This document shows, in pieces, positions 15,369-15,538 of a stretch of 32,000 bases of DNA (position 1 is its first letter; each line of letters opens with the position of its first letter). The position numbers and the translations under genes are program-made. The notes under the pieces were generated by a model that saw only the letters and a list, made by a program, of their open reading frames with translations, had not been told where the DNA came from and made no database searches. Source of the stretch: a virus. The stretch is taken from positions 327,683 to 359,682 of IMG/VR virus record IMGVR_UViG_3300017971_000185, one strand, 5' to 3'.

Positions 15369-15412
15369 ACCCTTCCAGACTTCAACCCGCAACCCGAAAG
15401 GAGGACAATCTG

Positions 15413-15538
15413 ATGCCTGACGATGATGACGATGACGATGATCGCTTGCCCGCGTTGGTGAAGTCTGGTCTATCACGCTTGGTTGTCAGCCAAGAGGTCA
15501 TGGGTTCAAATCCCATACGCGGGGCTGGAGGTCCGTAA
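15413..15538 (+). CDS. leader-type mini-ORF MPDDDDDDDDRLP... running into tRNA-Asp (probably regulatory if translated)
   Basis: SD AAAGGAGG (15397-15404), ATG 15413, eight consecutive GAC/GAT codons at 15419-15442. tRNA-Asp(GTC) begins at 15449 and the stop lies inside tRNA-Val. Confidence 0.3.
   Translation: MPDDDDDDDDRLPALVKSGLSRLVVSQEVMGSNPIRGAGGP
15449..15524 (+). tRNA. tRNA-Asp(GTC)
   Basis: Acceptor CCCGCGT/ACGCGGG, D stem GTGA/TCAC, anticodon loop TTGTCAG, T arm ATGGG-TTCAAAT-CCCAT. Confidence 0.88.

Follow-up and report, generated by a model that had tools for sequence, protein, structure and literature searches.

The stretch of DNA analysed here (the window, 32,000 nt) corresponds to bases 327683-359682 of IMGVR_UViG_3300017971_000185, a 497-kb IMG/VR virus record from a huge uncultured phage. 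The genome of this phage (58% G+C) carries 46 tRNA genes, all located between 310 and 376 kb; 27 of them fall inside the window, all on the + strand and interspersed with protein genes (ARAGORN, Rfam). Its sole tRNA-Asp gene, with a GUC anticodon, starts at 15449 and is abutted on its 5' side by a mini-ORF rich in Asp codons, hereafter the Asp leader (Table 1). Three tRNA-Thr genes lie upstream of the leader, and tRNA-Asp and tRNA-Val are followed by a small zinc-finger/HNH-like gene and a VWA (Ro60-like) gene.

Table 1. Coordinates of the features discussed (window positions) and leader peptides of related phages.
Feature	Positions	Strand	Details
C-rich, G-poor tract before the SD	15345-15396	+	25 C and 7 G in 52 nt; no conserved pairing
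Shine-Dalgarno (SD) sequence AAAGGAGG	15397-15404	+	8 nt to ATG 15413-15415
Asp leader mini-ORF to tRNA border	15413-15448	+	M P D D D D D D D D R L; stop-free up to the tRNA
Eight Asp codons	15419-15442	+	GAC GAT GAT GAC GAT GAC GAT GAT; end 6 nt 5' of the tRNA
tRNA-Asp(GUC)	15449-15525	+	ARAGORN; Rfam 61.6 bits; CCA not encoded
tRNA-Val(UAC)	15529-15603	+	ARAGORN, Rfam; holds the leader frame's only in-frame stop, TAA 15536-15538
Cys-rich protein, 179 aa	15644-16183	+	Weak Stc1 zinc-finger match
Bacterial-type small SRP RNA	22085-22177	+	Rfam RF00169, 57.7 bits (cut-off 40)
Ile leader, abutting tRNA-Ile(GAU) at 22439	22406-22438	+	M D D D I S D I I R H; three Ile codons ATT ATT ATC; acidic N-terminus
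Met mini-ORF, into CAU-anticodon tRNA at 22804	22747-22803	+	M T R K I T Y D E R M P R A D L Q I C; AAGGAG SD
His mini-ORF, into tRNA-His(GUG) at 23105	23056-23104	+	M L T T A H T D D E P H H H T Y; weak SD
G001 (L010), leader before tRNA-Asp			M A D6 R
G002 (L011), leader before tRNA-Asp			M N I E N D D C D D V D D T Y
G003 (L024), leader before tRNA-Asp			M D A P D D C D D R
G004 (complete 393-kb phage), leader before tRNA-Asp			M D T P D C D D I
L234, leader before tRNA-Asp			M P D8 R F
L256, leader before tRNA-Asp			M E D D D D A D D S Y

The tRNA-Asp gene lacks the CCA that several relatives encode (window 15525-15529), and 3 nt (CTG) separate it from tRNA-Val. Relatives of the 179-aa protein (32-45% identity) are spread over unrelated viral contigs, so the gene, which was of no use for synteny, has probably moved in next to the tRNA cluster as an HNH-like mobile element. 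The small SRP RNA lies within the phage tRNA region. We found no genes for peptidyl-tRNA hydrolase, a class-IIb synthetase or tmRNA in the phage.

Layout of the Asp leader

The earlier note had described an SD followed after 8 nt by ATG, a Pro codon, eight GAY codons and CGC TTG, with tRNA-Asp(GUC) starting 6 nt after the last Asp codon and the frame closing only inside tRNA-Val. A re-check of the sequence reproduced every coordinate, and ARAGORN and Rfam agree on the position of tRNA-Asp. Asp accounts for 8 of the 11 codons between the ATG and the tRNA border (CCT, eight GAY, CGC and, up to 15448, TTG). The ATG is the earliest start codon 3' of the upstream in-frame stop, and the frame that it opens spans 41 codons to its TAA in tRNA-Val. 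A 5-mer of the GAAAGGA-type SD is found at about 5.5% of random genome positions. Within the C-rich tract upstream of the SD, a CA-rich core, ACTTCAACCC.CAAC, is common to relatives (alignment with L010, L011 and L024); the tract may serve as a ribosome standby or enhancer site, and a role in Rho loading is also conceivable.

RNAalifold applied to ten leader-plus-tRNA sequences recovered the tRNA cloverleaf only (15 pairs with compensatory changes), with no pairing within the leader or between leader and tRNA. The leader-tRNA pairings obtained from single-sequence folds are not conserved across relatives and were set aside. No terminator-like site was found on the + strand between 15219 and 15650, and a promoter scan gave no sigma-70-like promoter near the leader. 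At the gathering threshold, an Rfam 15 scan of the window returned tRNAs and one SRP RNA only, with no T-box. In the absence of a leader hairpin, a terminator or a T-box match, the architectures of classical attenuators and T-boxes are missing here, and with neither promoter nor terminator nearby the unit is probably part of a long polycistronic transcript.

Conservation of the leader in a clade of huge phages

A search with the VWA protein yielded 30 related huge-phage loci, four of which have the same Asp-leader design. We also searched for a GUC anticodon loop plus a T-loop with Asp-rich triplets at the distance that a tRNA implies, a pattern that does not demand an SD or an ATG. Among 241 million metagenome records it matched 25 contigs, and 20 of these are tRNA-Asp clusters of the clade, most of them still with three tRNA-Thr genes on the contig. 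The Asp leader is present in all 20, with its SD and in-frame ATG visible unless the contig is cut just upstream. Four contigs were matched in IMG/VR; all four carry the leader, with an in-frame start and a GAAAGGA-type SD or a cut just upstream. Across 185,579 bacterial and archaeal species, each represented by a single genome, the pattern matched three times, twice in sequences that are not tRNAs and once in a GAY-rich spacer without a start codon on a 3.7-kb tRNA-array contig. This spacer (GTCGATGATGTCGATGACGTCGAACACCAC, positions 3371-3404 of L252, a contig with 14 tRNAs that is labelled as a Planctomycetota MAG) lies 5' of a tRNA-Asp and has neither a start codon nor an SD; the contig resembles a tRNA array or a piece of a phage.

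Altogether we obtained 13 unique Asp leaders, the one in the window and 12 further variants, in syntenic clusters of the order Thr-Thr-Thr-leader-Asp. Twelve of the 13 were tallied, and the thirteenth, L256, was judged by eye. A GAAAGGA(G/C) SD lies 7-10 nt 5' of the ATG in all 12 tallied variants, which contain 4-8 Asp codons each, the earliest being codon 2-6. Every GAY triplet in this set is in frame with the ATG (78/78), successive triplets are spaced by 3, 6, 9 or 12 nt, and the gap from the last Asp codon to the tRNA is 5-6 nt in each case (12/12). L256 has a matching SD and frame and a 6-nt spacing. No Asp variant has a stop codon before the tRNA; the frames close inside it, at position 8 or 20, or else within the following tRNA. 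Among GAN codons the tallied leaders use 82 GAY, 2 GAA and no GAG, whereas Asp and Glu are about equally frequent in the long ORFs of the phage (6.2% and 6.5%), whose acidic runs contain 101 E versus 91 D.

The variants have diverged. L234 differs from the window leader by four synonymous GAT/GAC changes, one synonymous Pro change and a single replacement, Leu to Phe. Identity between the window phage (G000) and L234 is 81% in the leader and 68% in the adjacent tRNA body, and between G000 and G001 it is 77% and 58% respectively, so that conservation of the leader matches or exceeds that of the tRNA that it adjoins. The leader is moreover found beside at least three different tRNA-Asp bodies. 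A tRNA-Asp without a leader is present in G005, G008, G009, G013, G015, G016, G020, G023 and G025, so the leader is dispensable in several members of the clade. Since all sequences come from one phage clade, the variants are related and do not represent independent inventions.

Other searches brought no further leaders. BLAST against GenBank phages, near and distant, gave tRNA-level matches only; the huge-phage record LR745208.1 has the Thr cluster and no tRNA-Asp within the 12 kb examined. The exact anticodon-arm word of the G000 tRNA-Asp had no match in IMG/VR. Among the matches listed for the pattern GGAG..ATG..GAY5, most were (ATG)n low-complexity sequence or true protein N-termini, and none lay beside a tRNA. 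Matches to a (GAY)4-plus-T-loop pattern were rejected as mainly acidic C-terminal tails of proteins that precede tRNAs.

The earlier note had offered a meaningless GAY trinucleotide repeat as the alternative to a functional leader, and had named conservation of the SD, ATG and Asp run as a check and microsatellite-like variation in repeat number as a refutation. The thirteen diverged versions abutting tRNA-Asp answer the first point in the leader's favour, and the drift in repeat number was not seen: L234 keeps eight Asp codons across its four synonymous changes. Slippage can generate GAY repeats, and the copy number is 8 in G000 and 6 in G001, but interrupted, non-repetitive versions (DDCDDVDD, DDADDSDD) retain the design, the SD, frame and spacing are strictly conserved, and the three pattern matches in 185,579 cellular genomes include no leader. 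A simple microsatellite, that is, a drifting pure repeat with free frame and flanks, is ruled out by the interruptions together with the constant frame, SD and spacing, and we find a meaningless repeat or chance ORF scarcely credible.

The (GAY)8 run is also the longest GAY run in the 497-kb genome, and all other runs of at least five (5-7) are acidic linkers within long protein ORFs. For the 192 tRNAs of the phage and its relatives with at least 45 nt of free upstream sequence each, we scored the enrichment of the tRNA's own amino acid in the last 15 upstream codons and shuffled the tRNA identities 2000 times. The cognate-codon total of 145 was matched in none of the 2000 shuffles, and eight spacers scored at least 3, compared with a shuffle mean of 1.4; as the procedure ignores the kinship of the genomes, these figures count as support and not as a P value. 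The Asp spacer has the highest score (9.4), and the top four cognate spacers all precede tRNA-Asp. The comparisons support the view that the SD, the ATG, the frame, the Asp rather than Glu codons and the 5-6 nt gap to the tRNA are under selection.

Mini-ORFs before other tRNA genes

Similar mini-ORFs precede other tRNAs of the phage (Table 1). The Ile leader belongs to a family of ten unique variants in relatives (for instance MEDSDISDITI, MEKEDSDISDIIY and MEDSDSDIGPIIY), each with 2-3 ATT/ATC codons close to the tRNA and, in 7 of the 10, a GAAAGGA SD. These peptides are about 34% Asp plus Glu, compared with about 12.7% in the long ORFs of the phage. The HHH block of the His mini-ORF is common only to the closest relative (...A P H H H L M), and farther relatives have one His codon. 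In the Met family, a core ..TY(S/D)ERMP.. with one or two internal Met codons is kept in relatives. Both the His and the Met families have weak SDs in relatives and few cognate codons. ORFs of the type M K R K N K P G K A G P K R, with a GAGGA SD, precede tRNA-Lys(UUU) in relatives. Overall, about 20 strong-SD mini-ORFs in the clade reach a tRNA, about two thirds of them with cognate codons and about a third without, and the His, Met and Lys versions appear weaker or less clear than the Asp and Ile leaders.

Several further observations concern these spacers. The hairpin CCCGG-GAAAG-CCGGG, whose loop includes a Lys codon, occurs in the Lys-rich leaders of G003 (L024) and G004 (L035), MKRKSEPGKAGPKES and MKRKNKPGKAGPKR, both of which stop at U8-A9-G10 (TAG) of tRNA-Lys. 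About 10.4 kb past the end of the window, at 370037-370075 of G000, an AAGGAGG SD and an ATG open an ORF (M E H E R W R G C P, then a stop) that ends 8 nt before tRNA-Trp. A 7-bp hairpin (GCTGTCC/GGACAGC) starts two codons past the single Trp codon and has the TAA stop of the ORF in its GTAA loop; the ORF may be a Trp version of the leader with a hairpin. A candidate Thr leader before tRNA-Thr(GGU) in L011 (3306-3354, NTNTNTNT / NTNTNTNTNT) was rejected, being a CA-rich (AACACC)5 repeat with no start codon; this spacer mimics a cognate leader in the enrichment statistics. Finally, the tRNA region of G004 (L208-L210) contains two tRNAs with a UCA anticodon, at positions 50696 and 51311, that ARAGORN labels SeC and that could be opal suppressors, hinting at TGA recoding.

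A candidate sensor of charged tRNA-Asp

The leader has much in common with hisL, pheL, thrL, trpL, ilvL and leuL of E. coli, each a short ORF with its own SD and ATG that is packed with the codons of one amino acid; as in these attenuators, ribosome speed at the cognate codons is presumably the readout of charged tRNA. The likeness to amino-acid-operon leaders, proposed in the earlier note, thus stands for the short SD-ATG ORF and its cluster of cognate codons, but fails for the terminator, the alternative hairpins and the stop before the target, none of which is present. The E. coli attenuators act on biosynthetic operons, whereas the target here is the tRNA gene itself, encoded by a phage, and the stop-less ORF overlaps it. 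A classical transcription attenuator with terminator and antiterminator hairpins, after the model of hisL and pheL, would account for the cognate codons that cluster in a short ORF 5' of the gene under control, but we consider it very unlikely: a mere 5-6 nt lie between the last Asp codon and the tRNA, the + strand from 15219 to 15650 is free of terminator-like sites, the leader has no stop codon of its own, and the 1:2, 2:3 and 3:4 hairpins and the intrinsic terminator that define attenuators are absent. The pheM leader of the pheST operon governs an aminoacyl-tRNA synthetase by attenuation via a terminator hairpin. There too a cognate-codon leader controls a component of the translation apparatus and not a biosynthetic enzyme, but pheM acts on a protein gene, while the product of the Asp leader's target is an RNA that the ribosome would unwind. 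Runs of a single codon in a tiny ORF are likewise seen in the polycysteine leaderless short ORFs of mycobacteria, amino-acid-responsive attenuators of downstream genes in the same transcript (bioRxiv 10.1101/834739); these control Cys-related protein genes, whereas the Asp leader has an SD and abuts a tRNA.

T-box riboswitches also link the state of a specific tRNA to a gene for the same amino acid through codon-like triplets, but a T-box recognises uncharged tRNA by means of a folded, untranslated RNA some 200 nt long, whereas the triplets of the Asp leader stand in an SD-ATG frame. Neither a Stem I with a specifier loop nor a T-box sequence, an antiterminator or an Rfam match was found in it. 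The GAY repeats could still act as RNA within the 5' leader of the pre-tRNA, by pairing with the GUC anticodon loop of tRNA-Asp in the manner of a T-box specifier or by binding a protein. The UGAC within GAUGAC is indeed complementary to the anticodon-loop GUCA, and the single-sequence MFE fold of G000 pairs part of the run with the D-arm region. Yet a correctly spaced SD and ATG in all variants, 78 of 78 GAY triplets in frame and interruptions in multiples of 3 nt speak against such a role, ten sequences share no leader-tRNA pairing, and Rfam gives neither a T-box nor another match, which leaves an RNA role improbable.

We propose instead that the Asp leader is a translated mini-ORF that reads the supply of charged tRNA-Asp and is wired to the phage's own tRNA-Asp gene, an overall explanation whose chances we put at about even. 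The sensor part, the readout of cognate charged tRNA, is well supported by the sequence comparisons: twelve diverged relatives keep the design, which suggests that ribosomes probably sense charged tRNA-Asp to control its production. The output step, from a stall to the level of the tRNA, we infer from the geometry and from known ribosome behaviour. As the ORF cannot end without entering the tRNA, its full translation and the folding of the cloverleaf with access for RNase P would be mutually exclusive on any one transcript. When Asp-tRNA is plentiful, ribosomes loading at the strong SD would cross the Asp codons and repeatedly invade the tRNA, where they would melt the acceptor stem and compete with RNase P, so that little mature phage tRNA-Asp would arise from the transcript. 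When Asp-tRNA is scarce, through starvation or loss of host tRNA in infection, the lead ribosome would wait at an early Asp codon, at least 20 nt upstream; too distant to touch the tRNA, it would occlude the start site, and the tRNA would fold and be processed. The net result would be an autogenous negative feedback of the tRNA on its own pool.

In the ribosome, the mRNA entry helicase is placed about 11 nt 3' of the first P-site base. While waiting at even the last Asp codon, a ribosome would then have its leading edge just at the first base of the acceptor stem, which could explain the fixed spacing of 5-6 nt. Nascent chains rich in Asp, Glu or Pro at the N-terminus abort translation (bioRxiv 10.1101/2021.02.02.429294), and the acidic N-terminal peptide may make the waiting ribosome drop off (intrinsic ribosome destabilisation, IRD). 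Such a drop-off would explain why no stop codon is needed, and IRD may also account for the acidic N-termini of the Ile leaders. Codon-specific stalling after cleavage of a tRNA by a toxin is documented (PMC13096801); host tRNA loss in infection, for example by anticodon nucleases, is a speculative trigger. It may also be that RNase P cleaves faster than ribosomes arrive, in which case the leader would be a mere non-stop fragment.

Among the other explanations, the one that we take most seriously, while still judging it unlikely, keeps a translated leader that senses Asp-tRNA but gives it another output: shielding of the transcript by coupled ribosomes against RNases or against Rho loading at the C-rich tract, control of the whole Asp-Val(-Ile) block, or positive feedback. 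The C-rich, G-poor tract directly upstream and conserved in relatives, the probable long polycistronic transcript with neither promoter nor terminator nearby, and the position of tRNA-Val only 3 nt past tRNA-Asp are all consistent with it. However, a ribosome that stalls would leave this tract unexposed, since the tract is upstream and not downstream of it, and simple coupling needs neither cognate codons nor a fixed spacing of 5-6 nt. A less probable explanation makes the Asp run an IRD peptide of the MgtL/YbeX kind, perhaps sensing Mg2+ or ribosome stability, with the match to tRNA-Asp being incidental. MgtL and YbeX (bioRxiv 10.1101/2021.02.02.429294, Chadani et al.) are similar to the leader in being very short, with Asp/Glu/Pro right after Met, and in that translation can end without a stop codon, which is used for sensing. 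Asp/Glu/Pro-rich stretches occupy the first ~10 codons after Met in MPDDDDDDDD, MDAPDDCDD and MNDDNDDDADD; the first two of these and MNDNSDSDD are of the N-terminal Asp/Pro-rich type shown to abort translation (bioRxiv 10.1101/2021.02.02.429294, PMC9718836, PMC12673854). The missing stop before the tRNA and the Asp-plus-Glu content of the Ile leaders (about 34% versus about 12.7% in long ORFs) agree with this. But MgtL and YbeX, which sense Mg2+ or ribosome stability, accept Asp or Glu, whereas the leader next to tRNA-Asp is almost exclusively Asp (82 Asp versus 2 Glu codons, against about 1:1 in phage proteins, where half of the acidic-run residues are Glu), the Ile leaders hold 2-3 Ile codons beside tRNA-Ile, and the leaders before tRNA-Lys are basic. 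We therefore regard IRD as an aid to the charged-tRNA sensor that we propose and not as a stand-alone explanation.

The Ile leader would follow the logic proposed for the Asp leader, and so, with less certainty, would those for His, Met and Lys in this clade. More tentatively, and with somewhat less confidence than for Asp by itself, we suggest that this clade of huge phages has an autogenous homeostat for individual tRNAs (Asp, Ile, probably Lys, His and Met), built from stop-less mini-ORFs in the tRNA's own codons in which translation and RNase P maturation would compete, with no terminator involved.

A full-text literature search returned no description of a leader ORF that controls a tRNA gene; its coverage was partial, and this absence is not proof. 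Leader-peptide sensing here apparently has a new target, a tRNA gene, and a new output. To our knowledge, essentially nothing is known of how phage tRNAs are regulated. The roles of phage tRNA genes are themselves debated; those proposed include codon compensation, the replacement of degraded host tRNAs and escape from defences that target tRNAs (PMC10264068). The element measures only about 130 nt and makes clear mutational predictions, such that the idea is directly testable. If it is true, leader-peptide sensing would extend from amino-acid operons to tRNA genes, as a new, terminator-free class of regulation based on competition between translation and RNA maturation for shared nucleotides. 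These phages would then make tRNA on demand through a ribosome-read sensor located on the tRNA gene itself, and would gain a built-in sensor of host tRNA depletion, for instance by anticodon nucleases.
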